64,000 bases of DNA from Chiloscyllium plagiosum (Eukaryota): the NCBI RefSeq assembly GCF_004010195.1, contig NC_057752.1, positions 2,251,750-2,315,749 on the forward strand. The letters are read 5' to 3'. Shown piece after piece: positions 5,014 to 64,000 of this stretch (its first letter is position 1; each line of letters opens with the position of its first letter). A program made the position numbers and the translations under genes. The notes beneath the pieces were generated by a model. That model did not search any database and was not told where the DNA came from. It saw nothing but the letters and a program-made list of their open reading frames with translations.

Positions 5014-5298
5014 GTTGTCGTCAACGCTTTGGTGGGTGCCATTCCTTCCATTATGAATGTACTGCTGGTCTGTCTCATCTTCTGGCTCATTTTCAGCATA
5101 ATGGGAGTGAACCTTTTTGCTGGAAAGTATTATTATTGTTTTAATGAAACCTCCGAATATAGGTTTCTCCCCTCGGAAATAAACAACAAGACAGATTGTG
5201 AGGCCTTTATAAACCAGACCAGTGATGAAATTCGATGGAAGAATGTGAAGATTAACTTTGACAATGTCGGAGCAGGATATCTGGCTTTGCTGCAAGTG
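5014..5298 (+). CDS. SCN8A: Nav1.6-like sodium channel internal exon (DIII S4-S5 linker, S5, extracellular loop, start of P-loop)
   Basis: Pyrimidine tract and CAG acceptor (5011-5013), GTACGT donor (5299). 285 nt, phase 0/0. Translates [48 protein letters not shown]...[29 protein letters not shown] and NNKT are Nav1.6-like. Confidence 0.93.
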
Positions 5299-5599
5299 GT
5301 ACGTTTCTTTCCTATTTTGGCACTGCTAATAGACTTTTATGTATGTGTTGATGCCCAACACCAAATTACGTTGATGTAGTGCCTTTAATATCCCATCAAG
5401 GTAAGGGAAGATAGCCCTGGGAATGGAGTATTTTCCAACTCTGGCACCCAGGCATCCAGGTACACACATGTGCATGGATGTGTTCTTTTGTGCATCTGTA
5501 CATTTATTTTTATTTCCACTCTGACCACTCATCTCAGACTCATGTGGATCTCGTTGCAAATTTGAGATACACTGGCAATAATATTCCTTCTATAATCTG

Positions 5600-10684: not shown

Positions 10685-13600
10685 CCTGCCATGTTATGGT
10701 TACAGAGCTGGTGTGTTGTGGCTACAGAGAGGGAGTGTTGTATTTACAGTGCCAGTGTATTGTGATTATGGAGCTAGCATGTTGTGGTTACAGTGCTGGT
10801 GTGTTGTGGTTACAGTAGTGTGTTGTGGTTATGGAACTGGCATGTTGTGCTTACACTACTGATGTATTTTGGTTATGGAGTTGACACATTGTGCTTACAG
10901 TGGCGTGTTGTGGTTATAGAGCTGGTGTGTTGTGGATATGAAGCTGGTGTGTTGTAATTATGGGGCTATCATATTGTGGATAGGAAGATGGGGTGTTGTG
11001 GTTATAGAGCTGGTGTGTTGTAGTTATGGAGCTGGCATGTTGTATTTACAGTGTCATGTTGTGGTTACAGTGCTGGTGTGTTGTGGTTATGGAGCTGGCA
11101 TGTTGCAGTTACAATGCTGGAGTGTTGTGGTTATGTGGCTGGCATGTTGTGGTTACGGTGCTGGTGTGTTGTGGTTATGGAGCTGGCATGTTGCAGTTAC
11201 AGTGCTGGAGTGTTGTGGTTATGTGGCTGGCATGTTGTGGTTACGGTGCTGGTGTGTTGTGGTTATGGAGCTGGCATGTTGCAGTTACAGTGCTGGAGTG
11301 TTGTGGTTATGTGGCTGGCATGTTGTGGTTACGGTGCTGGTGTGTTGTGGTTATGGAGCTGGCATGTTGCAGTTACAGTGCTGGAGTGTTGTGGTTATGT
11401 GGCTGGCATGTTGTGGTTACGGTGCTGGTGTGTTGTGGTTATGGAGCTGGCATGTTGCAGTTACAGTGCTGGAGTGTTGTGGTTATGTGGCTGGCATGTT
11501 GTGGTTACGGTGCTGGTGTGTTGTGGTTATGGAGCTGGCATGTTGCAGTTACAGTGCTGGAGTGTTGTGGTTATGTGGCTGGCATGTTGTGGTTACGGTG
11601 CTGGTGTGTTGTGGTTATGGAGCTGGCATGTTGCAGTTACAGTGCTGGAGTGTTGTGGTTATGTGGCTGGCATGTTGTGGTTACGGTGCTGGTGTGTTGT
11701 GGTTATGGAGCTGGCATGTTGCAGTTACAGTGCTGGAGTGTTGTGGTTATGTGGCTGGCATGTTGTGGTTACGGTGCTGGTGTGTTGTGGTTATGGAGCT
11801 GGCATGTTGCAGTTACAGTGCTGGAGTGTTGTGGTTATGTGGCTGGCATGTTGTGGTTACGGTGCTGGTGTGTTGTGGTTATGGAGCTGGCATGTTGCAG
11901 TTACAGTGCTGGAGTGTTGTGGTTATGTGGCTGGCATGTTGTGGTTACGGTGCTGGTGTGTTGTGGTTATGGAGCTGGCATGTTGCAGTTACAGTGCTGG
12001 AGTGTTGTGGTTATGTGGCTGGCATGTTGTGGTTACGGTGCTGGTGTGTTGTGGTTATGGAGCTGGCATGTTGCAGTTACAGTGCTGGAGTGTTGTGGTT
12101 ATGTGGCTGGCATGTTGTGGTTACGGTGCTGGTGTGTTGTGGTTATGGAGCTGGCATGTTGCAGTTACAGTGCTGGAGTGTTGTGGTTATGTGGCTGGCA
12201 TGTTGTGGTTACGGTGCTGGTGTGTTGTGGTTATGGAGCTGGCATGTTGCAGTTACAGTGCTGGAGTGTTGTGGTTATGTGGCTGGCATGTTGTGGTTAC
12301 GGTGCTGGTGTGTTGTGGTTATGGAGCTGGCATGTTGCAGTTACAGTGCTGGAGTGTTGTGGTTATGTGGCTGGCATGTTGTGGTTACGGTGCTGGTGTG
12401 TTGTGGTTAAGCTGGTGTGTTGTGGATATGCAGCTGGTGTGTTCTGTGTATGAATCTGGCGTGTTGTGGGTATGTAGCTGGTGTGTTGTGGATATGCAGC
12501 TGGTGTGTTGTGGGTATGTAGCTGGTATGTTGTGGATATGCAGCTGGTGTGTTCTGTGTATGAATCTGGCGTGTTGTGGGTATGACGCTGGCGTGTTGTG
12601 GGTATGAATCTGGCGTGTTGTGGATATAAAGCTGATGTGTTGTGGGTATGAAGCTGGCGTTTTGTGGATATGTAGCTGGTGTGTTGTGGATATGCAGCTC
12701 GTGTGTTGTGGGTATGAAGCTGGCGTGTTGGGGATACGAAGCTGGCGTGTTGTGGTTATGAAGCTGGCGTGTTGTGGATACGAAGCTGGCGTGTTGTGGG
12801 TATGAAGCTGGCATGTTGTGGATATGAAGCTGGTGTATTGTGGATATGACGCTGGTCTGTTGTGGGTATGAAGCTGGCATGTTGTGGATATAGAGCTGGT
12901 GTTGTGGATCTGAAGCTGGTGTGTTATGGAACTGGCATGTTGTGGTTACAGTGCTGGCATATTGTGCTTACACTACTGATGTATTTTGGTTATGGAGTTG
13001 ACACATTGTGCTTACAGTGGTGTGTTGTAATTATGGGGCTGTCATATTGTGGATATGAAGCTGGGGTGTTGTGGTTATAGAGCTGGTGCGTTGTGGATAT
13101 GAAGCTGGTGTGTTGTAATTATGGGGCTGTCATATTGTGGATATGAAGCTGGGGTGTTGTGGTTATAGAGCTGGTGTGTTGTAGTTATGGAGCTGGCATG
13201 TTGTATTTACAGTGTCATGTTGTGGTTACAGTGCTGGTGTGTTGTGGTTATGGAGCTGGCGTGTTGTGGTTACGGTGCTGGTGTGTTGTGGTTATGGAGC
13301 TGGCATGTTGTATATACAGTGTCGTGTTGTGGTTACAGTGCTGGTGTGTTGTGGGTATGGAGCTAGCATTTTGCAGTTACAGTGCTGGTGTGTTGTGGTT
13401 ATGGAGTTGGCATGTTGTAGTTACGATGCTGGCGTGTTGTGGTTACAGTGGTGTGTTGTGGTTATGGAGCTGGCACGTTGTGGTTATGGAGCTGGCATGT
13501 TGTGGTTGTGGTTACGGTGCTGGTGTGTTTTGGTAATGTAGCTGGCATGTTGTGGATACTGTGTCATGTTGTGGTTACAGTGCTGGTGTTTTGTGGTTAT

Positions 13601-14946
13601 GAAACTGGCATGGTTTGGTTACAGTGCCGGTGTGTTTTGGTAATGGAGCTGGCATGTTGCAGTTACAGTGCTGGTATGTTGTGGTTCGGGAGGTAGCATA
13701 TTGTGATTACAGTGCTGGTGTGTTTTGGGTATGGAGCTGGAGTGTTGCATTTGCAGTGCTGGTGTGGTGGTTATGGAGCTGGCATGTTGTGGTTACAGTG
13801 CTGGTGTGTTGTGGATATAGAGCTGGCATGTTGTGTTCATAGTGGTGTATTGCTGTTACGGTGCTGGTGTGTTTTGGTAATGGTGCTGGCATGTTGTGGT
13901 TACAGTGCTGGTGTGTTGCGGTTATGGAGCAGGTATGTGGTTACAGTGCTGGAGTGTTGTGGTTACAATGTTGGTGTGTTGTGATTATGAAACTGGTATA
14001 TTGTGGTTACAGAGCTGGTGTGTTGTGGTTATGGAACTGGCATGTTGCATTTACAGTGCTGGTGTATTGTGGTTATGGAACTGATATGTTGTGATTACAG
14101 TGCTGGTGTGTTGTGGTTACGGAGCTGGCATGTTGTGGTTATGGAGCTGACATGTTGTAGTTACAATGCTGGTGTGCTGTGGTTATGGAACTGGTATGTT
14201 GTGGCTACAGTGCTGGTGTGTTGTGGTTATGGAGCTGGCATATTGTATTTACAGTGCCGGTGTATTGTGATTATGGAGCTAGCATGTTGTGGTTACAGTG
14301 CTGGTGTGTTGTGGTTATGGAACTGACATGTTGTATTTACAGTGGCGTATTGCTGTTACAGTGCCGGTGTGTTTTGGTAATGGAGCTGGCATTTTGTGGT
14401 TACAGTGTTGGTGTGTTGTGGTTATGAAACTGGCATGTTGTATTTACAGTGCTGGTGTGTTGCGGTTATGGAGCTGGCATGTTGTGGTTACGGTGATGGA
14501 GTGTTGTGGTTATGTGGCCGGCATGTTGTGGTTACAGAGCTGGTGTGTTGTGGTTACAATGCTGGTGTGTTGTGATTATGGAACTGGTATGTTGGGGCTA
14601 CAGTGCTGGTGTATTGTGGTTATGGAGCTAGCATGTTGTGGTTACAGTGGTGTGTTGTGGTTATGGAACTGGCAAGTTGTGGTTACAGTGCTGGTGTGTT
14701 TTGGTTATGGAGTTGGCACATTGCGCTTACAGTGGTGTGTTGTGGTTATGAAGCTGGCATGTTGTAGTTATGGGGCTGTCGTTTTGTGGATATAAAGCGG
14801 CTGTGTTGTGGTTATGAAGCTAATACGTTGTGGTTATAGAGCTGGCACACTGTGGATCAGAAGCTGGTGTGTTGTGGTTATAGAGCTGGTGTGTTGTGGA
14901 TATGAAGCTGGTGTGTTGTGGTTATGTGGCTGGCATATTGTGGTTG
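10685..14946. repeat. Intronic 22-bp minisatellite running into an assembly gap
   Basis: Units such as TGTTGTGGTTATGGAGCTGGCA and TGTTGTGGTTACAGTGCTGGTG; homogeneous 88-bp (4x22) block at ~11080-12408. Confidence 0.97.
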
Positions 14947-15446
14947 NNNNNNNNNNNNNNNNNNNNNNNNNNNNNNNNNNNNNNNNNNNNNNNNNNNNNN
15001 NNNNNNNNNNNNNNNNNNNNNNNNNNNNNNNNNNNNNNNNNNNNNNNNNNNNNNNNNNNNNNNNNNNNNNNNNNNNNNNNNNNNNNNNNNNNNNNNNNNN
15101 NNNNNNNNNNNNNNNNNNNNNNNNNNNNNNNNNNNNNNNNNNNNNNNNNNNNNNNNNNNNNNNNNNNNNNNNNNNNNNNNNNNNNNNNNNNNNNNNNNNN
15201 NNNNNNNNNNNNNNNNNNNNNNNNNNNNNNNNNNNNNNNNNNNNNNNNNNNNNNNNNNNNNNNNNNNNNNNNNNNNNNNNNNNNNNNNNNNNNNNNNNNN
15301 NNNNNNNNNNNNNNNNNNNNNNNNNNNNNNNNNNNNNNNNNNNNNNNNNNNNNNNNNNNNNNNNNNNNNNNNNNNNNNNNNNNNNNNNNNNNNNNNNNNN
15401 NNNNNNNNNNNNNNNNNNNNNNNNNNNNNNNNNNNNNNNNNNNNNN
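14947..15446. other. Assembly gap (500 N, probably unsized)
   Basis: Run of N of round length joining unrelated sequences. Confidence 0.99.
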
Positions 15447-17530
15447 CCTCACACTTTCCCACGTTGTATTCCATCTGCCATGTCTTTGCCCATTCTCCTA
15501 ACCCGTCCAAATCCTTCTGCAGTCTCCCCGCCTCCTCAATGCTACCTGTCCCTCTACCTGTCTTTGTATTGTCTGCAAACTTAGCCAGAACATCCTCAGT
15601 CCCTTCATCTCGATTGTTAATATATAAAATGAAAAGTTGTGGTCCCAACACTGAGCCTTGTGGAGCACCACGTCACTGGCTGCCATCCTGAGAAGGACCC
15701 TTTTATCCCTACTCGCTGCTTTCTGCCAGACAGCCAGGCTTCTATCCATGCCAGCACCTTGCCTCTGACACCATGGGCCCTTATCTTACTCTGTAGCCTC
15801 CTGTGTGGCACTTTGCCAAAGGCCTTCTTGAAATCCAGGTAGGTAACACCCATTGGCTTTCTTTGGTCTAACCTGTTTGTAACTTCCTTAAAGAATTCTA
15901 ACAGATTTGTCAGGTATGACCTCCCTTTGATGAAACCACGCTGACTTTGCCCTATTTTACCATACACTTCCAAGCATTCAGAAATCTCATCCTTCACAAT
16001 GCATTCCAAAATCTTACCCATAACTGAGGTTAGGCTAATCGGCCTGTAATTTTCCAGGAGTGTCATGTTAGTGATTTTCCAGTCCTCTGGGACCCTATCT
16101 GACTTGAGTGATTCCTGAAGTATCACTACTAATGCCTCCACTATCTCTTCAGATATCTCCTTTAGAACTCTGGGGTGTAGTCCATCTGGTCCAGGTGATT
16201 TATCCACTTTCAGGTCATTCAGTTTTTCGAGCACCTTCTCTTTGGTGGTGGCCACCATAGTCAGCTCTGTCCCCTCACTCTCTTGAATGTTTGGAATATT
16301 ACTCATGTCTTCCACCATGAAGACTGACATGAAGTAATTATTCAGTTCTTCAGCCATTTCCTTGTTCCCCATTACTATCTCTCCAGCATCATTTTCCAGT
16401 GGCCCAGTGTCCACAATCTCTGTGTCTCCTGAATTACTCCCAGAAACTCCAGCCATTGCTGTTCCACTGTCTTTCCTGCTAGGCTCTCCTCCCAATCAAT
16501 TCTACCCAGCTCCTCCCTCATGCCTCTGTAGTTGCCTTTTTATTCAGCTATAATACGGTTACCTGATTCTATCTTCTCCCTCTCAAATTGCAGAGTAAAT
16601 TCAATCATATTATGATTACTGCCTCCTAAGTGTTCCTTCACTTTAAGCTTCCTTATCAAGTCTGCCTCATTGCACAACACTAAATCCAGTGTTGCCTGTT
16701 CCCCAGTGGGCTCCACCACAAGCTGCTCCAAAAAGCCATCTCATAGACATTCCGCAGATTCCTTTTCTTGTAATCCACTACCAACCTGATTTTCCCAGTC
16801 CATCTGCATATTGAAATCCCCCAAGATCACTGTAACATTGCCTTTCTTACATACCCTGTTCTATCACCGGGTGTATCTTGTTCCCCAGCTCCTGCCTACT
16901 TTTGGAGGCCTGTACATAATTCCAACTATGGCTTTTTCACCTTTGTGGTTCCTCAATTCTACCCACACAGATTCTACACCATCTGACCCTACTTCATTTC
17001 TTCCTATTGATTTAATTTCATTTCTTACGAAGAAAGGCAACCCCATCCCCTCTGCCCACCTGCCTATCTTTTTGATAGGATGTGTCTCTCTGCACATTCA
17101 GCTCCCAATCCTGATCCCTTTGAAGCCACATGATGCCCACCACATCATACCTGCTCATTTCAAGCTGCGCCGCAAACTCATTTACTTTATTCCTTATACT
17201 GCGTGCATTCAGATATAACCTCTTCAGTCCTGTATTAACCGTCCCTCTTCTCATTGTCATTTGTTTGTCCGGTGTGCTTGAAGTTTGATTACTAACCCTT
17301 TCCATACACTTTGTCCTATTTGTGTCTGTGCTGGAGATTTTAATAACCTCTCCTGAGTTCTCTTTCCTTGTCATTTCTTTCATATTTTTCCACAGAGTTG
17401 AAGCCACCCTTACATATGTAAACCTACTGATTTGTTTCCCACTGGGGGAGGTTTTACCCTTCCTTCTGCCCGCCCGCCCCCCCTTTCAAGTTTAAAGTTG
17501 TGTTGACCAGCCTATTTACCCTTTTCGCTA
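15447..17530 (-). mobile_element. CR1 LINE ORF2 relic (APE endonuclease and RT, internal deletions)
   Basis: LYLNARSIRNK, GIMYRPP, LDLVLCN, KSPGPDGLHPRVLKE, NYRPISLTS, YLDFKKAFGKVPH, KFADNTK. Confidence 0.95.
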
Positions 17531-19423
17531 GAACATATCAGTCAGTGCAGACCAGAAACTTGGTACCCATTCTAATCTGTGTCTCTCATCAAGGATTGTC
17601 ACTAATCAAATAAAAATTGTGAGTATGATCAGACCTTTTGAGTTTATGTTCCAGGATATAACCCATTCCAAACCATTGTGATCCAGGAAAATTACACAGA
17701 TGCATTTCAGCATTTAGAGTCCATAGAGTCATACAGCGTGGAAACAGAACATTCGGTCCAACTAGTCCACGCTAAACTAGTCCAAACTAAACTTAGTCCA
17801 ACTTGCCTGTGATTGGCCCATATTCCCTCCAAACCTTTCCTATTTATGTACTTATCTTTTAAATGTTGTAACTGTACACATCCACCACTCCCTCTGGCAG
17901 TTTATTCCACATGTAAACCACTCTCTGTGTAAAAACGTTGCCCCTCTTGTCCTTTTTAAATCTTTCTCCTCTCACCTTAAAAATATGCTCCCTATTTTTC
18001 AACTCCCCACGCTAGGAAAAAGACCCCTAACTATTCACCTTATCTATGCCCCTCATGATTTTATAAACCCCTATAAGGTCACCCCTCAATCTCCTACACT
18101 CCAGTGAAAAATGTTCCAGCCTACCTTTATAATTCAAACTCTCTATACCCAGCAACATTCTGGTAAATCTTTTCTGAATCCACTCCAGGTTAATAATATC
18201 CTTCCTATAACAGGGCGACCAGAACTGGACACAGTATTCCAGAAGAGGCATCACCAATGTCCTGTACAACCTCAACATGACATCCTAATTCCTATACTCA
18301 AAGGTCTGAGCAATGAAGGCAAGCGTGCTAAATGCCTTCTGAACTACCCTACCTATATGTGACACAAATTTCAAAGAATTATGTATCTGAAACCCCGGGT
18401 CTCTCTGTTCTACACCTCTATCTAAGGCCCCATCATTAATTATATAAGTCCTGTCCTTGTTTACCAAAGTACTATCCCTCACGTTTATCCAAATTAAACT
18501 TCATTTGCCACTCTTCAGCCATTGGCCCAATTGATCAAGATTTCTTTGGAATCTTAGATAACCTTTTTCACTGTCCACTATACCCTATACTCCCAATTTT
18601 GGTGTCATCTGCAAACTTACTAACCATGCCTCTTCTATTCTCATCTAAATCATTTATATAAATGACAAGCAAAAGTGGACCCAGCCCTGATCACAGGCCT
18701 CCAGCCTGAAAGACAACCCTCCACCCCCACCCTCTGTCTCCTACTGTTGAGCTAATTTTGTATCCAATTGGCAAGCTCTCCCTGAATCCCATGTAACCTA
18801 ATTTTATTAATTAGTCTACCATGCAGAACCTTGTCAAAGGCTTTACCAAAGTTCATGTAAACGACGTCTACCACTCCGCCCTCTTCAAGCTTTTTTGTTA
18901 CGTCCTCAACAAACTCAATCAAGTTTGTGTGACATAATGTCCCTCATAGAAAGCTATGTTGACTATCCCTAATCAACCCTTGCCTCTCCAAATGCATATA
19001 AATCCTATCTTTTAGAATCACCTCCAACAGCTTGCCCACCACCGATGTCAGACTCTCAGGTCTATAGTTCCCCGGCTTCTCCTTCCAGCCTTACCTAAAT
19101 AAAGTCACGTTAGCCACCCTCCAGTCCTCCAGCACCTCACCCATGGTTATAGATGATACAAATACCTCTGCTAGCTGCCCCGCAATTTCTTCCCTAACTT
19201 ACCACAACTACATTACTTGATTAGGTCCTGGAGGTTTATCTACCTTTATGTTTTCTAAGACGTCCAGCATTTCTTCTTTTATAATGTGAACAGTTTTCAA
19301 AACATCAATATTTATTTCCCTGAGTTCTCTAGCCTCCATTTCTTTCTCTACAGTAAAAGCTAGTGCAAAATATTCATTTAGTATCTCTCCCATTTCCTGA
19401 AGTTCAACACATAGACACCTCTT

Positions 19424-19545
19424 GGATGTAGGTTTGCTCACTGAGCTGAAAGGTTCATTTCGTTACCTTACTAGGTAAGTGGATTTCAGTGGATTTCATG
19501 CAAAGCAATGTTGAAAATTCCTGCTTTCTATTTATATGTTTGTTG
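19424..19545. mobile_element. Small insert in CR1, possibly a different Penelope-type terminal fragment
   Basis: Interrupts the CR1 reading frame; sequence recalled as PLE-terminus-like, not verified. Confidence 0.35.
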
Positions 19546-20514
19546 ATCATTAAGGGGCCATATTCTCTCCCTGGTTGCACTTTTGCTCTTAATGTACTTG
19601 TAGTATCTCTTTGGATTATCCTTAACATTACCTGCCAAGGCTATTTCATATCCGCTTCTTGCCCTGCTGATTTCCTTCTTAAGAATGCCCCTACACCCCT
19701 TATACTCTTCAAGAGATTCATTTGATCCCAGTTGACTACATCTAACATAGGAGGCTTTCTTATTCTTAACCAGAGCTTCGATATCTCTATTCATTCATTG
19801 TTCCCTGATCTTACCAGCATTACCTTTCATTCTAACTGGAATATAATGCCTCTGAATTCTCGTTATCTCACTTTTGAAAGCCTCCCACTCCCTTTACCTG
19901 TGAACTGTCTACTCCAATCAACTTTGAAAGCTCCTGTCTCAAACCATTAAAATTTACCTTACTCCAATGAGGAATTTTAACTTTTATACAAGGCCCCTCC
20001 TTTCCATAACTTTTAAAACTAATAGAATTATGATCACAAGTCCCAAAGTGTTCCCCTGCAAACTCCTCAGTCACTTGCCCTGCCATATTTCCCAACAGAA
20101 GGTCAGGTTTTGCCCTTTCTCTAGTAAGTAAATTTACATATGGATAAAGAAAGTTTTCTTGAACACATTTAACAAATTCCTCACCATCCAACCCCTTAAC
20201 ATTTTGGCAGGTGCACTCAATGTTTAAAAAATTAAAATCCCCTAGTATTACAACCCTATTATTCTTACATATATTTGAGATCTCTCTACATATTTGCTCC
20301 TCAATTTCCCTCTGACTGTTGTGGGGGCAGGGGGGTGGGGTGAGGGGGTTGCAAATAGTACAATCTCATCACCCCCTTCTTCTTTCTGAGTTACACCCAT
20401 ATAGCTTCACATGGTCGAACCCTCAGAAATATCCTAAGTACTGCAGTAGTATTTTCCTAAATCAAAAGCACCACTCCTCCTCCTCCTCTGTCGGCTCTCT
20501 TTCTATCCTTCCTA

Positions 20515-22326: not shown

Positions 22327-22594
22327 ATTATAACATGTTTGACTGCGTGTTAATCACCAACAATTGTGCAATACTCCGTGTCAAGGGCACTTCAAAACTG
22401 GTAGGTTTTTTGAAGTTTACAGTTCTATCTGTGCAGTTCATAAAGTGTGATATGACATATTGTTTTTGCAAGGTACTTCTGCATAATTTAATCTTCTCGT
22501 TTTCTTTGACAGTTACAGTTCCATGATTCATCTATGGCAGATGAATTGTTTTACAGCAAAAACATTAACAATGAACTATCTTCTGTTTCCCTAG

Positions 22595-23754
22595 GAATGT
22601 TCCTGGCTGATATCATTGAGAAATACTTTGTGTCACCGACCCTTTTCAGAGTAATTCGATTGGCCCGAATTGGCCGTATCTTGCGTCTGATCAAAGGAGC
22701 CAAAGGAATCCGAACGCTATTGTTTGCCTTAATGATGTCTTTGCCTGCCTTGTTCAACATCGGGCTGCTTTTGTTCCTGGTCATGTTCATCTTTTCCATA
22801 TTTGGGATGTCTAATTTTGCATATGTCAAGAAAGATGGCGGTATCGACGACATGTTTAACTTTGAAACATTTGGTAACAGCATGATCTGCTTGTTCCAGG
22901 TCACTACATCTGCAGGTTGGGATGGTTTGCTCTTGCCGATCTTAAACAGACCACCAGATTGTGACCTTGAAAAGGAGAATCCAGGCACTGCTGTTAAAGG
23001 AGACTGCGGCAATCCCAGTGTGGGAATATTTTTCTTTGTCAGTTACATCATCATATCATTTTTGATTGTAGTCAACATGTACATTGCCATTATTCTGGAG
23101 AATTTCAGCGTGGCGACCGAGGAGAGCGCAGAACCACTGAGTGAGGATGACTTTGAGACATTCTACGAGATCTGGGAGAAATTTGACCCTGACGCCACGC
23201 AGTTCATTGAATATAACAAGTTGTCTGACTTTGCTGATACCTTGGAAGCTCCTCTTCGAGTTCCTAAACCCAATCACATTGAACTCATTGCCATGGACCT
23301 GCCCATGGTGAGCGGTGATAGGATTCACTGCTTGGATATCTTGTTTGCATTCACCAAGCGTGTGCTTGGCGAGGGCGGTGAAATGGATGTCCTCCGGCAG
23401 CAGATGGAGGAGCGATTTGTGGCGTCCAACCCCTCCAAGGTGTCCTACGAGCCAATCACGACCACTCTTCGGCGCAAGCACGAGGAGGTTTGTGCCATCA
23501 TTATTCAGCAAGCGTATAGGGCACACTTGGCAAGGCGAAAAATCACCATCAAAGGAAGAGTTCCCTGTACTAAGTCGGGAGGGCATGCGAATGAGAATGG
23601 CAACACCAATCAAGAGAAAAAGGAAGGCTCTCCCTCCACTGCATCGCTGCCTTCGTATGACAGTGTAACTAAGCCTGAGAAACAAGAGAAGGATCGAAAA
23701 GGCAATGATAAAGGCAGAAACAACCAAAAAGACATCAGGGAATCTAAGTTGTGA
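22595..23754 (+). CDS. SCN8A: Nav1.6-like terminal coding exon (DIV S3 end to S6, EF-hand-like region, IQ, PY motif)
   Basis: TTCTGTTTCCCTAG acceptor (AG 22593-22594), phase 1, TGA at 23752-23754. S4 [16 protein letters not shown], filter TTSAGWDG, and Nav1.6-type [27 protein letters not shown] tail. The ORF start at 22534 is intronic read-through. Confidence 0.95.
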
Positions 23755-33875: not shown

Positions 33876-36800
33876 TGAAATAACTCCACAGAGGCCGGTA
33901 TCCTGTCACCCTTTCTTTACACGTGGAGAGTCCTTGACACTGATCCAGCTCCCTCAGAGTGAACAGAACCTCTGACCCTCCTGTTTATTTTTTCCCCCTC
34001 CTGTTTTTTTTTCCTTCTTCTAACTCAAAAACAAACAATCAAAATAAAAGGAAACCAGAAATCAAAAATGTCTCTCTCTCAAAGAACTCTCTTGTCCTTC
34101 TTCTTAATACACTGGCTGTGGGCCAGCTAGCTCACAGTCAGTCCCCTCCTTTGACACAAAAAGGAGAGTCCTTCACACACTGATCCAACTCCCTCAGAGG
34201 CAGCTCTCAAAGTGATCAGAACCTCTGACCCTCCTGTTTATTTTTTCCCCCCTCCTGTTTATATCTGTAAGCCAGGGCTCCCTGACTGGTGCTGTTAATC
34301 TGGTCCAATCACGGCATTCATATTCTATGAGGTCCACCTGGCTGACCTCATTGCGATCACTACATTCCTCCCCCTCTGAGTCCAAGGACATAGGCTGGTT
34401 CTTTTTCTTATAACCCCTCCTGTGGCTTTTTAGCGGGTCAGGTTCCCCTGACTCTGCCTCTGATATGAGCGTTGTGTAACAAAAAGCAGCTCATCTCTTG
34501 CACCCGGAGTGTCTCGGAAGAAATTAATTCTCCTCTTCAGGCAGCAAAGGCATCAAGGCAGTGACGTCCACCATGTCCATTTCAGATTCTGAGGTATCTT
34601 CAATGCTTGATGGAGAGGGAGAACCCATGGGTTCTCGAACAGTCAGAAAGCCCATTGCGTAGCCGGGCCTGTTTTGCTCCTGCCCATTTTGCAAGTTTGC
34701 AGCTTTTATATGGCCCACATTCTTGTTCAGGACTATCGCACCTACCCGAACGTTATATATCACGAGACCTGACCTCATACCAACCATGCCTTTTACCCAT
34801 GCAGGGCCATTCCCATGGCTGCTGCACCAAACTTCATTCCATGAAGTAAACTGTCTCTCTTATTTAGCAGAATCTTGGGTCTGGTATTGGCGTTCCCGAT
34901 GCCATTTCACCACTGCCATCCCCCAGGTCCAGGAAGATCAGATTTAATCTGGTGTGGAGCGTTTTCCCCATTAGTAACTCTGCTTGAGCTATCACTGTAG
35001 TTACATGGGGGTTGGTCCGATAATCAAATAGGAACTGCAACAGTTTGGTATCTAATTTGGCTGTAGGCTGTTTCTTCAAGCCTGCCTTCAAAGTTTAGAC
35101 TGCTCTTTCTGCCAGACCATTGAATGGTATGGAGCTGTCCTTATATGGCAAATCCCATTCAACTGTACGAAATACTCAAACTCCCTACTGGTAAATGATA
35201 GCCTGTTATCTGTGACCAACACTTCTGGGAGTCCATGTATTGCAAACGATTTGTGCAGTTTTTCTATCGTTGTCCCCATGTTGATAAATGAACCATATGC
35301 ATGTCCAGCCCTTTTGAGTGGGCATGCACAGTGACTGAGAGCATTGAGCCCATGGAAGGACCTGCATAATCGGCATGTAACCAAGTCCAGGGTTTACCCG
35401 GCCATTCCCACAAATGTGGGGGAGCTGCTGGAAGTAGTTTCTGTCCTTGATGGCACTCTGGGCACTGCCCACCAATGCAGCTATGTCTGCATCCAATCCT
35501 GGCCACCAGATGTAATTTCATGCCAACATGTTCATTTTGGATACCCCTGGCTGACCCTAGTGGAGTTTAGCCAATATTTTATGGCGACCTTTGCTTGAGA
35601 CAATCACTCTTGCTCCCCATAATAATATGCTGTCCTCTACTCTACCCTAACCCTGGTCTGGTCTCTCTGGGTCCAGAAAGGTTTCACTTCTGGCTGTGAT
35701 GGCCCTTTGGTTTCCCCCATCCCCACCAGCTGTTTCAGTTTTGCCAGGACTGGATCTTTATGCGTCCAAAGTCTGATATTGTCAGCTGTGACTGGAAGTG
35801 TGTCCAGAAAATTTAAAGCCATTACCGACTCTTCCAGTGGTGGTAGCACCGGTGGTGTATCTGCCAGTGGGAGGCACCTCAGTGCATCTGCATTTGCTAC
35901 TTGGCCTCCCGGACAGTGTTCCAACATGTAATTGTACGCATGGAGAACGAGAGCCCGCTGCTGAATTAAAGCTGAAGCTATGGGCGGCACTGCCTTGGTC
36001 CTCTTTACGTAGACCTAGCAGGGGTTTGTGGTCCGTTATAGTTACAGATTTATGTCCGTAAAGGTATTGGTGGAACTTGCTGACTCCAAATATGACCGCC
36101 AAACCTTCCTTCTCTGTCTGGGTGTATTTTACACTCTGCAAAAGCCAAAGTCCTGGATGCATACGCTATTGAGCGTTCCTCTCCATTGGGCCACCTGTGA
36201 GCTAATACTACCCTGATGCCGTGCAGGGAGACATCGCATGTCAACACCAGATCTCACTGAGGATCATAGTGTGTCAACACCTTAGAGGATGATAGAGGTT
36301 TCTTCACTTCCCTGAAAATTTTGGCATGGCCAATGGATCCTTTCCAAGGCTGACCCTTTTATAAAAGTTAGAAGATGGATGGAGGCCAGGTTATGTATGA
36401 ACTTTCTGTAAAAATTCACCAGTCCAAGGAAAATCTTAAGTTCTGGTACAGATGTGGGAGCCAGGGCACCTTTGACCACCCTCATTTTATCTTCCAATGG
36501 GTGTAACCCAGTCTTGTCGACTCTGTAGCCCAAGTAGGTCACTTGGGGTGCCTGGAACACACATTTTTCCCTTCTCAGGTGAACCTCTGCCTGGGAGAAT
36601 CTAAGGACAATGGCCAGGTTCTCTAAGTGTTCCTAATTGGTCTTCCCTGTTATTCCAGGTCATCCAGATGAATGGCAATCTGGGGTAGACCTTATAAAAT
36701 GTTCTCCATCGTCCACTAAAAAAAACTGCGCAGGCTGACGATACCCAAATGGCAGTCTCGTTTATTGGTACAAACCCTTTTGGGTATTAATTGTAGCATA

Positions 36801-39424: not shown

Positions 39425-40845
39425 AACATAGAACATTCCAGCACAGTACAGGCCCTTCGGCCCTCAATGTTACGCCGAACTGTGGAACCAATCTGAAGCC
39501 CATCTAATCTACACTATTCTATTCTCATCCATATGTTTACCCAATGACCATTTAAATGCCCTTAAAGTTGGTGAGTCTACTACTGTTGCAGGCAGGGCGT
39601 TCCATGCCCCTACTACTCTCTGAGTAAAGAAACTACCTCTAACATCTGTCCTGTATTTATCACCCCTCAATTTAAAGCTATGTCCCCTCATGCTAGCCAT
39701 CTCCATCCGAGGAAAAAGGCTCTCACTGTCCAACCTAACCCTTTGATTATCTTATGTGTTTCAATAAAGTCGCCTCTCAACCTTCTTCTCTCGAACGAAA
39801 ACAGCTCAAGTCCCTCAAACTTTCCTCGTAAGACCTTCCCTCCATACCAGGCACCATCCTAGTAAATCTCCTCTGAACCTTTTCCAAAGCTTTCACATCA
39901 TTCCTATAATGCGCTGATCAGAACTGTACGCAATACTCCAGATGTGGCCGCATCAGGGTTTTGTACAGCTGCAGCATGATCTCATGGTTCCAAATCTCAA
40001 TCCCTCTACTAATAAAAGCTAACACACCATATACCTTCTTAACAACCCTATCAACGTGGGTGGCAACTTTCAAGGATCTATGTACCTGGACACCGAGATC
40101 TCTCTGTTCATCTACACTACCAAGAATCTTACCATTAGCCCAGTACTCTGCATTCCTGTTACTCCTTCCAAAGTGAATCACCTCACACTTTTCTGCATTA
40201 ACTTCCATTGGCCATCTCTCAGCCCAGCTCTGCAGCTTATCTATGTCTCTCTGTAACCTACAACATTCTTCATCACTATCCACAACTTTACCAACCTTAG
40301 TGTCATCTGCAAATTTACTAACCCATCCTTCTGTGCCCTCATCCAGGTCATTTATATAAATTATGAACAACAGTGGACTCAAAACAGATCCTTGCGGTAC
40401 CCCACTAGTAACTGATCTCCAGGATGAACATTTCCCATCAACCTCCACTCTCTGTCTTCTTTCAGCTAGCCAATTTCTGATCCAAACCACTAAATCATCC
40501 TCAATCCCATGACTCCATATTTTGTGCAATAGCCTACCATAGGAAACCTTATCGACCGCCTTACTGAAATCCATACATACCACACATCAACCACTTTACC
40601 CTCATCCACCTGTTTGGTCACCTTCTCAAAGAACTCAATAAGGTTTGTGAGGCACGACCTACACTTCACAAAATCATGTTGCTTACCCTAATCAACTTAT
40701 TCCTCTCTAGTTGATTATAAATCCTATCTCTTATAACCTTTTCCAACACTACCCACAACCAAAGTAAGGCTAACTGGTCTATAATTACCAGGGTTGTCTC
40801 TCCTCCCCTTCTTGAACAAGGGAACAACATTTGCTATCCTCCAGA
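39425..40845 (-). mobile_element. CR1 LINE RT region and 3' end
   Basis: NYRPVSLT, GVPQGSVLSPLLF, SKFADDTK, RPHLEYCVQF, FFTQRVVGAWNALP. Confidence 0.95.
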
Positions 40846-46371: not shown

Positions 46372-46792
46372 TCTGGGGCTGTTTTCCCTGGAGCGTCAGA
46401 GGCAGAGGGGTGACCTTATAGAGGTTTATAAAATCATGAGGGGCATGGATAGGGTAAATAGACCAGGTCTTTTCCCTGGGGATGGGGCAGTCAAGAACTA
46501 GAGGGCATAGATTTAGGGTGAGAGGGGAAAGATATAAAAGAGACCTAAGGGGCAACTTTTTCACGCAGAGGGTAGTATGTGTATGGAATGAGCTGCCAGA
46601 GGAAGTGGTGGAGACTGGTACAATTGCAACATTTAAGAGGCATCTGGATGGGTATATGAATAGGAAGGGTTTGGAGGGTTATGGGCCGGGTGCTGGCAAG
46701 TGGGACTAGATTGGGTTGGGATATCTGGTCAGCATGGATGGGTTGGACCAAAGGGTCTGTTTCCATGCTGTACATCTCTCTGACTCTATGAC
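46372..46792 (+). mobile_element. CR1 3' end
   Basis: FFTQRVVCVWNELP and CTCTATGA-type tail. Confidence 0.92.
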
Positions 46793-49196
46793 AACAACAG
46801 TTGAAACTGCATTCCTGTCCATTAATGGAAGCAGTTTCAAATAGTGCAGTATCTGTATAGAACTGTGGAGAAAATCTTCAAATCTGCTTGAATTGTAAAG
46901 AAACACATTTACTGATTGGAATGATTGGAACGAGGTTGGCCAGGTGGATCCTGTTGAGTATGAGTTCCCTGACTGGGGCTGTTAACCTGGGGCCAGTAAG
47001 GTCGTCCTGGTTGACAGATATAAACAGGAGTGAACACTACTGCAGTTAGGTGGTAGTGTGGGGGTAAAATAAATAGAAAAGACAAAGTATATGTAAACAG
47101 GAGTATGAGAGAATCTCCTCACTTGAGGGACTGCCTCTGAGCTGGCTGGTCAGAGTCCATGTAGTGTGCATGTGTAAATAAAGGGTGAGGTGGTGACGGG
47201 ATACTGGTCTCTTGTGCTGTTCTTTCAGTGGCAGTGAGAGAAAACAGTACACTCCCGAAGAAAATTCACTCGCAACAGTCGTTGATCTGAAGTGAGATGT
47301 GGTGCTGACGTGCAATGCCTCCCTGTTTGGTACCAGGGTAGGCTTGGCTCATTGGTGACCCAACAGAGAGGAACAGACAGGAAGGCTTCCCGGTTTTTGG
47401 CTAATGCTGAATGCAAGTACACCCAGATAGAGAAGACCAGTTTGGCGGTCATCTTTGATGTGAGTTCCACCAATACTTTTACGAGCGTAAATTTGTAATA
47501 GTAACAGACCGCACACCCGTACTAGGCATACTCAGACTGACATGGCAGTGCCACCTATAGTTTCTGTTCAAATTCAGCAGTGGGTCCTTATTCTCAGTGA
47601 GTACAAGTACAAGTCGGAATACTGTCAAGTGGCAGATGCAAATGCTTTGAGCAGCCTCCCACTGGCAGATACACCACCGGTGGTGCTGTCCTGGAAGAGT
47701 CCATTCTGATTTTAAACTTTCTGGACACTCTTTCTGGTCACCACTGACTGGACACAAAAGGATCCAGTCCTGGCAGAACTGAAACAGCTGGTGCTAATGG
47801 AGGGAACAAAAGGGCCATCACAACAGGAATTGACCCCGTGAGACCAGATCACCATCGAGGGTGGCATATTATTATGGGGAGTAAGTGAGACTGTCCCAAG
47901 TAAAGGTCACCTGCATCAGGATCATCCAGGGGTTCCCAAAATGAAGATGTTGGCAAGAAGCTATGTCTGGGGACAAGGACTGGATGTCGACATAGCTACA
48001 TTGGTGAGGCAATGCCCAGAGTGCCAACAAGAACAAAGATTGCTACCAGCAGCTCCCCCACATTGGTGGGAATGGCCGGGTAAACCCTGGATTCGGTTAC
48101 ACGTTGACTATGCAGGTCCTTTCACGGGCTCAATGTTCCTGGTCATTTTGGACTCTCATTCAAAGTGGTTGGGTGTGCATAGAGTGCATTTTGCAAACTC
48201 AGTGATGACAATGGAGAAGCTGTGAGCATCCTTCACAATACATGGACTCCCAGAAGCACTGGTCACAGACAACGGAATATCATTTGCCAGAAGGGGATTT
48301 GAGTATTTCCTAAATTCGAATGGCATTCAGCACATAAGGGCAGCTCCATACTATCCATTGTCCAATAGTCCGGTGGAAAGAGCAGTCAGTACATTGAAGA
48401 CAGACTTAAAGGAGCAGCCTACCAAACTGTCCCGGTTCCTGTTTGATTATAGGATCACCCTCACACAATAACAGGGATGGCTCTAGCAGAGTTGCTGTGG
48501 GGAGAAGGGTCTGTGCCAGATTAAACCTGATATTCCCAAAACTGAGAGGGGAAGGTGAAACAGCAGCAAGAACTCCAATGCTGGCCACATGCCTCCTCTA
48601 AGCGAGAGAGACGATTTAATTCAGGAGTGACGTTTGGTACCAGAACCATGGAAATGGCTCTGTATGGGTCTGAAGTGAGGTTGACAAAGGTTCGGGTCCT
48701 GTCACTTACAAAGTTCAGGTAGGTGAGCTGGCCCTAAACAAACATGTGCATCACCTGAAAGCTGAAAACACACCTGCCCCCTCCAAACAGCCAGAGGCCT
48801 GTCGGAAACTGTAGGTTCTCTCCCTCCATCTAGTGTCGAGGAGACCTCAGAGTCTGAGATGGATGTAGCCTCAATACCGCTACCACTGGAAGAAGAGGAG
48901 GAAATTCTCCCGAGACATTCTGGACGCAAGAGACAGGCTATTGTCTGGTACACGCCAGAGTCAGAGTCAGAGGAACCAGACTTGGCAGGAAAAGTTACAA
49001 GAGAAAGACCAGGCCTACATCCCTGGACTTAGGAGGGGAGGGATGTAGCGATTGGAAACAGATTGGCCAGGTAGATCTCATCAAGTGTGAGATCCCTGAT
49101 TGGGGTTGTTAACCTTGGCCAATCAGTGAGCCCTGGCTGACAGATATAGCCAGGAGATTTAGAATCTCCTCAATTTAGGGGACTGACTCTGTGCTG

Positions 49197-51780
49197 CAGT
49201 CAGTGTGTTCCTGCTGCTGTTGGTTTCTGTTTGCTTTTGGAGGAAACCTGATTCCTGAACTGGCTGAACCATATCGCCAGTTTGTTAACTGGTATTCCTT
49301 TCTATTGAGGACTGACTTTTAAACTGACTGATTTAAGCAGTCAATGTGTTATAGGTGTAACTCGGTTCTCATTCAGGAACTGTTGTTTCACTGACTGGTT
49401 ACAGCATGTGTGTTACTCTTTTCTCCTTTATTTTGAGAAAAGGACTATGCTGATTTTGTGGCAGGGCTTAGCCCTTGCACTCTTTTTTTTTTAAATGTGT
49501 TTCATTTTTTTGGTGCTTGGACTGAGCCCTTGTGAGAAAATACACCTTTCCAGATAAGCTGTTCCTGTGGGTAGGCCTGGCCCTTGTCAGTGGACTGGGT
49601 CTCTGTAAAGACTGAACACGTGTGTGTGTGTGTGTGTGTGTGCCGGGAGGTGAGCATGCGTCCTGGAGTGTGGGAGTGGACTCTGCCTTTGGGAGTGGAC
49701 CAAATCCCTGTGAGTTAACTGCACCTTTACAATGTACTGTGTTCCTGTGAGTGGACCTGGTCCTCTGGATAAACCAGGCCTCTATGGAAACTGAACACCT
49801 GTGTGTGTGCTGTGGGGTGTGCATTTGCTGCCTTCAGGAGTGGACTCTGCCTTTGCTTGTGGACTATGTTTCTGACAATGCATTCTGTAAACTGGAGTGG
49901 ACTCTGTTCCTGGGAATGGATTCTGCATTCTGAAGAGAATTGTTTATAGTAATGGACTCTGTGTACCAGAAAAGACTCTGTTTGTTGGTAATTGACTCTG
50001 TCTTATTGCTTGTTGGGATTATCACCTGCACTGTCTTGTGTGTCCCTGGGTCTGGCAGGCCTTACTGTGAGCTGGGAGGATCATAGGTCATCCTGAAAGC
50101 TGTCACCCCGAGAGCCGGAGGGTGGGTAGGCTATCCTGTGAACCTGAAGGTGGGTAGGCTCCCCAAGAGCTGGAAGGTGGGTAGGCTGTTCTGAGTGCTG
50201 TCACCCCGGGAAGGGGTAATCCTAATGGGCTGTCTTAGAGGTGGCCAGGAAGTGTGTCGGAGTGGCTGAGAGTCAGAAGCTGCGCAGGGACAGGCCAAGA
50301 TCCAGAAGGCTTGTGGGCTGCCCTGTGCGCCGCCATCCCAGGGAAGGGAATGGGCTGTGCTAAGTTATGGATCAGGCCAGACAAGTCAAAACATCCTTAA
50401 GCAGACAGCCCAGATCATAACTTTGCAATTTGTTTCGGTAAGTGTACAGTGAAAATTACCCGGAGTAAACTAGCTAGGTTGACTACCAGGTTTAAAACAG
50501 ACAAAACGTTTATTCACAAAATTACACAAAGAACAGAATAAAGAACCCCTACAGAACTCAGTCTATCCAAACGAGACTTCGGTATGCTATTCCAAATATA
50601 CACAACAGTCCCAATAAGCAAACCCCCTTTAAAATACAGTACAAAAAAGGTCAAGTGCTTACAGGTTGAAGTTAGAAGGGCAGAAGAGAGAGTTTCCACA
50701 CAGCTCACTATTGAACTCCCAACCAGTTCTGGACTGAACTGCTCAGCTAGAGAGCTGACCACTCCCCTTTCTTTATACAGGTCACTTCTAAAACATGACC
50801 GCTTTGGCCAGAAGTATCATCTGTTTACATATAAACAAAAAGGCCTCACAAAACCCTTTTCATCTCTGTACCAAACTAGTCTGATCAGAGCCAGTTTATC
50901 ACACCTCTAAAAAAAAAGTCAATAACAGAGTATCCTTGAGCCAAGGATCAGCTTTTTTTAAAAAAAGGACTAGCTTTGTGACACCCAGAGGTGGCCGCAA
51001 GGCGTGTCAGGGCAGTCCACAGGCTGGATGGTGCATCGGGGTGGGTGAGAGCGCAATGGTATGTAGGGGCAGACAGAGAGCCAGAAGGTGGGTAGGCCGT
51101 CCTCACCGCTGTCACCCCGGGCATGTTCCGGGGCAGGCTGTCCTAGAGGTGGTCAGAAGGTGTGTCAGGGCAGTCCACGGGCTGGATGGCGCATTGGGGT
51201 GGGTGAGAGTCAGATGGTACATAAGGGCAGACAGAGAGCCAGAAGGCGGGTAGTCCGTCCTCAGCGCTGTCACCCCGGGTGGGTACCGGGGCAGGCTGTC
51301 CTAGAGGTGGGTGGAAAGTGCGAAGGGTGATTAGGGAAGCCGGAAGGTGGGCAGGCTGTCCTGATCACTGTCGTTCTGCGGCAGTTGGGGAAGCAGGACA
51401 GGCTGTCCTAGAGGTGGCTGGAAGGTCTGTCAGGGCAGAACGAGAGCTGGAAGGGGCGTAGGGGTGGGCTGCCTTAGAGTGGCCAGAAGATGGGAGGGAT
51501 GGGGCTTGCTGATTTGCTGGGGTGGGGGGGTCTGTATTCGATGCACTGTTTTTATCTAATTGGACTGCCTTATATGTATTTGTTACTGTTACTCTAGTGA
51601 TGCTCGAAAGTGGGATATTGAGGTTTGTCCTCATTTCCCTGAAAACTGGTTGAAAGGTAGGGTTTGGGGCCTGGCTTTGCCATTCCTCTTCCTTGTAAAA
51701 TTGCTGTTTCTTGTATACGGCTGTTCATGTTAATTGTTTGTAAACTGTATTGTTTACTAAAATTTTAAAAAAGAAAAAAA
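49197..51780 (+). mobile_element. Unclassified non-coding A-tailed insertion with internal tandem arrays
   Basis: Between 50-bp direct repeats; T-rich 3' region then AAAAAAGAAAAAAA; GTGGACTCTG-type and GGTGGGTAGGCTGTCC-type arrays. Confidence 0.65.
50363..50983 (-). mobile_element. Solo LTR nested in that insertion
   Basis: Ends (a)GTTATG...TGTGACA, minus-strand AATAAA ~50509, splits a GGCTGTCCTAGAGGTGG unit with degenerate 4-bp flanks (GCTA/CCCA). Confidence 0.7.
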
Positions 51781-52534
51781 TAACTAGGAGATTTAGAATC
51801 TCTTCAGTTCAGCGGACTGACTCTGAGCTGGCTGGCCACAGCCAGTGTACTCTGCACGAATGAATAAAGGGAGATTTGGTGGCAGGATATCATTTCACTG
51901 ATTTCTCCCCACTCCTTGTTTGCTTGCAACAGGGATTTTAGAAAGATATGCTTGCTAATTCAGCAAGTGGTCAACTGTTCATGTGCTATGGCGCTGGAAG
52001 ACAAACACAGACAAGTCCTTTGTAACCTCTTCTCCAAGAGAATAATATTTATTGTACTTAATCAAGTTTAAATGAGATAATTAAAATGCTCCAAATTTCC
52101 TGCACATTTACACTCCAGGTTTTACACACACACACACTACACACTCACGCAAGCATACAATCATACTCGCATGCACTCACACACACACATAAGTTGCAGA
52201 GTGGGAGGACAAATGAAACAATATTTTGTTAGAATCCAATAACAGTTAAAGGTACATAGGTAAGGGGCTTGCAGATTAATAACATAAAGGGTTTTTGGGC
52301 TGAACTCAATAGTCCCTCTGGATTCGGCATTGAGGTGATTCAAGTGTGTGAAGAGATGTTTCATCTGTTCTTGTGGGGCAGGGATCCTGTTCCCTCATCA
52401 TCCCTTGTATTTCTGTCTTGTGTTGTGGAAAAAGGACAGTTTCTCAAACACAAAAGAGAGCTAGCTGCCTTGTAACATAATCCACTCTTTCCAAATGACC
52501 AGTGATCCCAATATGGTGATGGCAAGTGGATTCC

Positions 52535-62835: not shown

Positions 62836-63089
62836 GTGCTATATAAATGCAGTTTGATTGGCTTGTATTTTGATTTCCTAGCTGTGCTCAATCCTAAACT
62901 TGTTTCACAATGGATGCCAGTTTTTGCCAGTCTAGGATCAGTGAGACTGGTTTTACCAGCTTATTTACCCATCAAATACATCTTTAATATAATTTGCACA
63001 TATTAAAATGTATTTAATATCCCATTATCAGATTATAACAGAATATTCACTGTCCAATTAGTTTTCCTCTTGCTGTTCATGATGAAAGC

Positions 63090-64000
63090 CATTTACATCA
63101 ATGATTTGGATGAGAATATAGGAAGCATGGTGAGTAAGTCTGCGGACAACACCAAAATTGATGGCATAGCAGAAAGTGACAAAGGTTTCCTAAGATTACA
63201 AAGGCACCTTGATCAAATGGGTCAATGGGCTGAGAAATGGCAGATGGAGTTCAGTCTGGATAAATGTGAGGTATTGCATTTTGGTACAACTAACAAGGGT
63301 AGGGCTTATACAATTAATGGTAGGGCCTTGGGTAGTGTTGTAGAACAGAGGGACCTAGGGGTTCCGGTACATAATTCGTTGATGTTTGCCTCACATATCG
63401 ACAGGGTAGTAAAGAAGGTGTTTACCACGCCTGCCTTCATTCTGAGTATAGGAGTTGGGACGTGTTGTTGAGGTTGTACAGGACATTGGTGAGGCCTCTT
63501 CTGGAATACTGTGTCCAGTTCTGGTCGCCCTGTTATAGGAAGGATATTATTCAGCTGGAGTGGATTCAGAAGAGATTTACCAGGATGTTGCCAGATCTGG
63601 AAGGTTTGAGTTATAAAGAAAGGCTGGATAGGCTGGGACTTCTTTCACTGGAGCATAGGATGTTGAGAGGTGACCTTATAGAGGTTTATAAAATCATGAG
63701 GGGTATAGATAAGGTTAATGGTAGGTGTCTTTTCCCTAGGATGGGGGCTTTCAAGACTCGGGGCACATTTTTAAGGTGAGAGGAGAGAGATTTAAAAAAA
63801 TACTTTTTTTTTAAACAGAGGGTGGTTCACGTGTGGAATGGACTTCCTGAGGAAGTGGTGGATGTGTGGGCAATTGCAAAGTTTAAAAGGTATTTGGATA
63901 AGTTCATGAGTAGGAAAGGTTTGGAGGGATATGGGCCAGGAGCAGGCAGGTGGGAATAGTTTAGTTTGGGATTATGGACTGGTTGGACCGAAGGGTCTGT
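63090..64000 (+). mobile_element. CR1 RT C-terminus and 3'UTR
   Basis: YINDLDE, SKSADNTK, RPLLEYCVQFWSP; same family as 17715-18660. Confidence 0.93.

Follow-up and report, generated by a model that had tools for sequence, protein, structure and literature searches.

Why are all three long terminal repeats (LTRs) of an old Gypsy family in one stretch of DNA interrupted at the same point beside their TATA-like box? The question arises from a window of 64,000 nt of Chiloscyllium plagiosum DNA (GCF_004010195.1, NC_057752.1, forward strand, 2,251,750-2,315,749; all coordinates below are window positions), in which two Gypsy remnants hold three LTRs, each of them filled with other DNA. The original prediction proposed that target-primed reverse transcription (TPRT) parasitises this LTR next to its promoter, and our analysis bears it out in part: a tail lies at the motif, the target is duplicated, and site and orientation agree in 4/4 events and 3/3 LTRs. 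The locus is real and not an artefact. We consider it likely that the four inserts at this one LTR motif were placed via TPRT by the endonuclease of a sequence-preferring long interspersed nuclear element (LINE). The enzyme would probably be of the Tx1 clade, an assignment that rests on precedent since the enzyme gene is absent from the inserts.

One motif in three Gypsy LTRs

The host elements and their LTRs are the following.

46917-51897 (+): Gypsy-type LTR retrotransposon remnant (element 2), internally deleted, host of inserts; 5-bp target site duplication (TSD) CTGAT at 46912-46916 / 51898-51902; Pfam Integrase_H2C2 and rve in the interior, with stops read through as X.
46917-47227 (+): LTR A, the 5' LTR of element 2, interrupted by a short insert; 77-78% identity to the halves of LTR B.
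49044-49146 (+): U3 part of LTR B, the 3' LTR of element 2, with a TATA-like GATATA at its end (49143); the TATA box is predicted from the motif.
51781-51897 (+): resumption of LTR B, with the right duplication copy (51781-51848), AATAAA at 51863 and the LTR end.
33876-34364 (-): LTR C, which is the 3' LTR of another Gypsy remnant (element 1); upstream of it, at about 37030-34365, are traces of reverse transcriptase (RT), RNase H and integrase.

Element 1 retains the Ty3/Gypsy domain order RVT_1, RT_RNaseH, Integrase_H2C2, rve (Pfam), and the integrase remnants and 5-bp TSD of element 2 are consistent with the same membership. In element 2 the sequence just past the 5' LTR (47228-47330) is already RNase H-like; gag, protease and RT are deleted, and both LTRs and the TSD are kept. 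Pairwise identity among the LTRs is 73-78%. LTR B spans 49044-51897 including its insert, and its two halves align to LTR A at 87/113 positions (U3) and 90/116 (R-U5).

Within these LTRs we distinguish four insertion events, one in LTR A, one in LTR B and two in LTR C.

47032-47093 (+): 62-bp insert of LTR A, made of a hairpin, a G run and a decayed A-rich run; 11-bp duplication 47021-47031 / 47094-47104.
49147-49206 (+): left copy of the long duplication in LTR B, 50 bp long without gaps and probably 60 bp if an 8-bp gap is allowed.
49207-51780 (+): insert of LTR B, a non-coding multi-copy retroposon, ~1.95 kb when a nested repeat is discounted, with degenerate GT-rich repeats, GC-rich tandem units of 28 and 158 bp, a T-rich 3' end and an A tail.
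34241-34251 (-): micro-insert of LTR C, a G run and an A run between two TAAACAGGAG copies; the older event, with 10-bp repeats around it.
34163-34260 (-): left copy of the 98-bp duplication in LTR C; right copy 34006-33925, 79/83 aligned columns identical, micro-insert in both copies.
34007-34162 (-): 156-bp insert of LTR C; a 40-bp R-like piece (34147-34108), then a T-rich end and an A tail.

In TPRT the tail marks the first nick, and the second nick sets the target duplication. All four events lie at the same TATA-proximal motif in one orientation, and the motif belongs to these LTRs: 5/5 exact TAAACAGGAG matches and 6/6 AAACAGGAG matches in the 64-kb window fall inside them. An A-rich 3' tail abuts the target, clean in three of the four events (LTR B and both in LTR C) and decayed in LTR A. 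Every event has a target duplication, of about 10, 11, 50-68 and 98 bp, so the long, variable duplications that had been predicted are found, two of them exceeding the usual 10-20 bp. LTRs A and B belong to one element, as their shared TSD indicates, and hold different inserts, which therefore came later and separately. Each insert differs, even between the LTRs of one element, so the LTR consensus does not include them; had it done so, this would have told against the original prediction. The idea of a single insert family fails: with at least three different tails, the inserts are not one family.

Could the site be merely an ordinary hot spot, where promiscuous, abundant L1-type LINEs and their passengers nick a flexible AT-rich TATA stretch in open promoter chromatin, with no dedicated specificity? 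The target is indeed a T followed by a purine run, the three or more unlike tails met at this one site fit such a view, and so does tail depth above LTR depth, described below. Yet each LTR offers 5-8 other T/purine-run sites on its two strands, the AATAAA signal among them, and these are unused in 3/3 LTRs. Simple arithmetic from the count of alternative sites per LTR gives a chance of ~0.01-0.03 that three LTRs would choose the same site among such sites, and a far lower one against all positions. The single orientation of all events also speaks against a hot spot. Furthermore, a T is kept between the tail and AAAC in 3/4 junctions, unlike the L1 target consensus 5'-TTTT/AA-3' (PMC1950540), and this difference points to an enzyme with its own preference. 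We regard a hot spot as unlikely.

Several observations nonetheless weigh against targeting by a sequence-preferring enzyme or against its clade. The tails are unlike one another, some being of the form hairpin-G run-A and others T-rich-A. The LTR A insert has no clean A end: it terminates in GTATATG, its A-rich run halts 7 nt short of the motif, and the junction is uncertain by ~8 nt. The prediction that the other two LTRs carry different, A-ending inserts at the same motif in one orientation thus stands for site, orientation, difference and the A end in LTR C, and is loose where the end in LTR A is concerned. Public contigs of three DNA runs (X1, X9, X15; three organisms), aligned on 49645-51960, gave tail bins ~2.5-3x deeper than the LTR R-U5 bins in X1 and X9 and ~2x deeper in X15, where contig depth per bin is summed and not equal to copy number; this excess could come from stacked arrays or equally from a large number of tail copies lying outside this LTR. 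A pile-up of contig ends at the insert/LTR junction was not found among the matches listed. Contigs linking separate positions gave 1954 joint rows, 15 of them listed, and two of these 15 lead from other copies of the tail into LTR R. The jump from 51710 to 51809 occurs in X1 and X15, with one contig apiece, and that from 51667 to 51786 in a single X15 contig. A genome-wide LTR preference of the LTR B insert family is hinted at by these three contigs among the matches listed, a weak signal given sides of just 22-27 letters. As to the clade, a six-frame Pfam search found no apurinic/apyrimidinic endonuclease (APE) or RT remnant in the LTR B insert.

The 2.6-kb insert of LTR B

The 3' LTR had been described as split by a 2.6-kb insert between 50-bp direct repeats, ending in a T-rich region and an A tail, and each of these points was confirmed. 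The copies 49147-49196 and 51781-51830 are identical at 43/50 positions (51 bp at E 2e-9 by self-BLAST), LTR A is matched on both sides of the insert, and the 2584 bp between the copies close with a T-rich stretch and an A run at 51767-51780. Two amendments are needed. Past an 8-bp gap in the left copy, a 10-mer matches the LTR 9/10 up to 49206, with a match of such quality in 3/2097 30-nt window bins; since the left copy probably reaches 49206, the duplication is 50-68 bp, and the predicted 50 bp represent its ungapped part. Also, the insert is present as described, though not as one piece, for 621 bp of it form a separate repeat that the prediction had missed.

50363-50983 (-): nested solo-LTR-like repeat of another family, a later arrival within the GC-rich repeats; TG...CA-like termini, one of them altered, and a degenerate duplication of 4 bp, both judged by eye; separate, far higher depth profile.

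The nested repeat is very abundant, with the depth maximum in all three DNA runs and RNA reads from both strands. A similar solo-LTR-like layout, again judged by eye, lies at about 38785-38170 and has no BLAST match to it among the matches listed.

What kind of element is the remainder? No Pfam family was found in any of the six frames of 49197-51781, no open frame there is longer than shuffles give, and none of the inserts has an open reading frame (ORF). Having no ORF2 with APE and RT, the LTR B insert is not an autonomous Tx1 LINE. It is not a short interspersed nuclear element (SINE) either, as the Rfam scan of 46800-52000 revealed no head derived from transfer RNA, 5S, 7SL or small nuclear RNA (snRNA); its 4 hits were all at E 1 or worse, far under the gathering score. 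Its features are those of a composite non-autonomous retroposon: non-coding, multi-copy, A-tailed, with a target duplication. SVA, which contains a variable number tandem repeat, offers an analogy only, because SVA is not site-specific and no sequence relation is expected. The likeness is that SVA retroposons, too, are composite and non-autonomous, measure ~2 kb and end in an A tail, and that some of their copies use an upstream promoter (PMC4494074).

The aligned contigs cover 49645-51780 deeply in 3/3 DNA runs. Outside the nested repeat, summed depth per insert bin was 2175-56464 (X1), 683-30309 (X9) and 1947-66078 (X15), against 9.7, 8.1 and 0 in the flank bin. The longest aligned contig pieces differ from the insert at ~12-22% of sites. 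Deep cover together with this divergence indicates that the LTR B insert represents an old, abundant dispersed family.

In RNA run X21, of which about 2% was read, 433 reads aligned, 290 of them <90% alike, with a pile-up at 51595-51750 where minus-strand first mates prevailed (66 and 52 vs 3 and 2). We do not count this as evidence of transcription, since it may reflect priming on genomic A runs and the reads come mostly from other copies. No RNA dataset was listed as matching 46900-49600. On folding, the LTR A hairpin had a z of -3.58, with 1/200 shuffles equally stable; the LTR B tail (z -0.16), the LTR C insert (z -1.71) and the 5' end of the LTR B insert (z -1.03) did no better than shuffles.

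Long duplications and the 5' junction

How do two of the duplications come to be so long? The 98-bp duplication of LTR C is local and younger, since its copies are 95% identical, against 73-78% between LTRs, and the micro-insert is copied within it. The insert it encloses carries the 40-bp piece, which is 36/39 identical to 51811-51849, that is, to the R region of LTR B and not to LTR C's own, a score that 0/2000 shuffles reach. Carrying LTR sequence, this longer LTR C insert is not wholly foreign to the LTR. Its T-rich part is weakly like the LTR B tail (19/2000 shuffles). Its unique part, 34107-34013 (-), lies between 10-bp direct repeats (AGAAGAAGGA), which may mark a further nested insertion or be due to chance.

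A plausible transcription start lies ~30 nt past a TATA box. In LTR B coordinates, the 40-bp piece starts at the equivalent of 49177, which is 32 nt past the first T of the TATA-like box, and stops at the same word as the LTR B left copy; its position is as expected of a transcript from a filled LTR's promoter. This suggests an alternative to a wide stagger, in which the long left LTR copies would come partly from a donor transcribed by the LTR promoter, the cDNA ending in LTR R and annealing to the new target. Two precedents exist: the 5' extension of SINEU-2B comes from Mariner-N4_AMi, which it targets (PMC4494074), and earwig R2 has a 22-bp downstream 28S duplication bearing substitutions (PMC3774820). 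Set against such an inherited leader are the number of cases, only two, the lack of likeness between the B and C sequences past their shared end point, and the distal part of the LTR B duplication, whose divergence (5/37) does not exceed that of the proximal part (2/13). Moreover, the local origin of the 98-bp duplication means that true long duplications happen anyway. We hold an inherited leader to be possible though rather doubtful; it alters the 5' step only and is compatible with site-preferring TPRT.

The long repeats might instead have been built by DNA-level events, with tandem LTR duplication, break repair or inter-LTR recombination also bringing in the foreign DNA. The LTR sequence within the LTR C insert and the microhomology at its 5' junction fit this account, and 50-98 bp exceeds the 10-20 bp usual for APE LINEs (PMC6895275). 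Nevertheless, both inserts with long duplications have an A tail exactly at the motif, and the LTR B insert belongs to a repeat dispersed in many copies and resembles the LTR in its first 60 bp only. Long LINE duplications have also been published, namely 126 bp in R9 (PMC6895275) and, for ZfL2-2, a long duplication in 1/25 insertions in wild-type cells (PMC2666801). We judge DNA-level events to be very improbable. Divergence within the LTR B duplication (7/50) did not differ significantly from that between LTRs (52/229; P 0.25). A second nick at an inverted target copy near 51849 was considered and dropped, as the stretch lies outside the 12 best-scoring windows of the LTR halves.

Under the TPRT reading that we favour, the bottom strand would be nicked opposite the GATA/TAAAC stretch, and the A tail of the RNA would prime at the nick. 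A loose second-strand nick, or a loose 5' joining point, could then produce mostly short and sometimes long duplications. The 2.6-kb insert may be a non-coding passenger of the LINE machinery, or else a LINE's own long non-coding end, into which the solo LTR of another family would later have landed. The element would probably gain a multi-copy landing site where insertion does no harm and a promoter lies directly upstream.

A more speculative extension, which we hold only tentatively and think more probably wrong than right, is a life cycle of promoter piracy. If an element inserts at the TATA box and duplicates a long stretch downstream of it, whatever is inserted, be it no more than a truncated tail, would be preceded by the LTR's intact TATA box, start site and initial 30-40 nt of R. 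Such an insert could then become an LTR-headed transcript, copied by the same enzyme into the next LTR. Non-coding retroposons such as the 2-kb tandem-repeat element and a 140-nt unit in LTR C might be born continually in this way, with the target as their sole promoter.

Known systems and other features of the window

Targeting of LTR elements by Tx1-type LINEs is already known, and the present locus is a new example of a known habit. The crocodilian Tx1 families Tx1-8_Crp and Tx1-4_AMi prefer LTR retrotransposons, target specificity being accepted there when >20% of family copies are flanked by the same target (PMC4494074, Kojima 2015). These are ORF-bearing families placed by RT phylogeny (PMC4494074), whereas the inserts here have no ORF. 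SINEU-2 and SINEU-3 come closer in that they are non-coding passengers sharing the target of a site-preferring Tx1 (Tx1-Mar, into Mariner-N4_AMi), with stacked insertions, a 5' extension derived from the target transposon and transcription from the target proposed (PMC4494074). In contrast to these short, snRNA-headed elements (PMC4494074), the LTR B insert is ~2 kb long, has no Rfam head, contains tandem repeats and takes an LTR promoter as its target. Likewise, Tx1L of Xenopus makes a sequence-specific, APE-type insertion into another transposon, Tx1D; unlike the case here, its target is a DNA transposon and its endonuclease specificity was demonstrated in vitro (PMC1950540). Finally, R9 (PMC6895275) and earwig R2 (PMC3774820) have similarly long duplications of downstream target at the 5' junction, yet both are specific for ribosomal DNA and have fixed duplication lengths, compared with ~10 to 98 bp here.

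In the literature searched, which lay outside Repbase Reports and most subscription papers, we found no description of a Tx1 or composite retroposon that targets LTRs in sharks. What the locus adds is unusually long duplications and a hint, from two inserts, of an LTR-derived leader made from the LTR promoter. A Tx1-type system aimed at an LTR promoter would widen the range of targets of a known group, and Gypsy LTRs may be disabled or hijacked by it at large scale. Site-specific LINEs exemplify genome parasites parasitising each other, and targeted insertion is a reason for interest in their endonucleases. The spread of duplication lengths bears on second-strand cutting in APE LINEs, a step described as poorly understood (PMC6895275), and transcription of inserts from their target is a question left open for SINEU (PMC4494074). 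Three metagenome-contig loci from a scan with a 19-base motif were rejected as chance, because in all three only the motif itself matches.

Elsewhere in the window, many decayed LINE pieces lie at 15450-17300, 17715-20500, 39430-40830, 46373-46790 and 63000-64000, which keep traces of RT or endonuclease, have short tandem repeats at their ends and resemble CR1. As a source of the inserts these remnants were rejected, since they end in short tandem repeats and are not linked to the tails described above. A minisatellite of about 195 copies of 22-bp units occupies 10692-14945 and extends into the assembly gap at 14947-15446. A voltage-gated sodium channel gene (Ion_trans, IQ_SCN5A_C) has exons at 22510-23754 (+) and 4915-5379 (+); the former is seemingly the last coding exon of the gene, which places both Gypsy remnants downstream of it.

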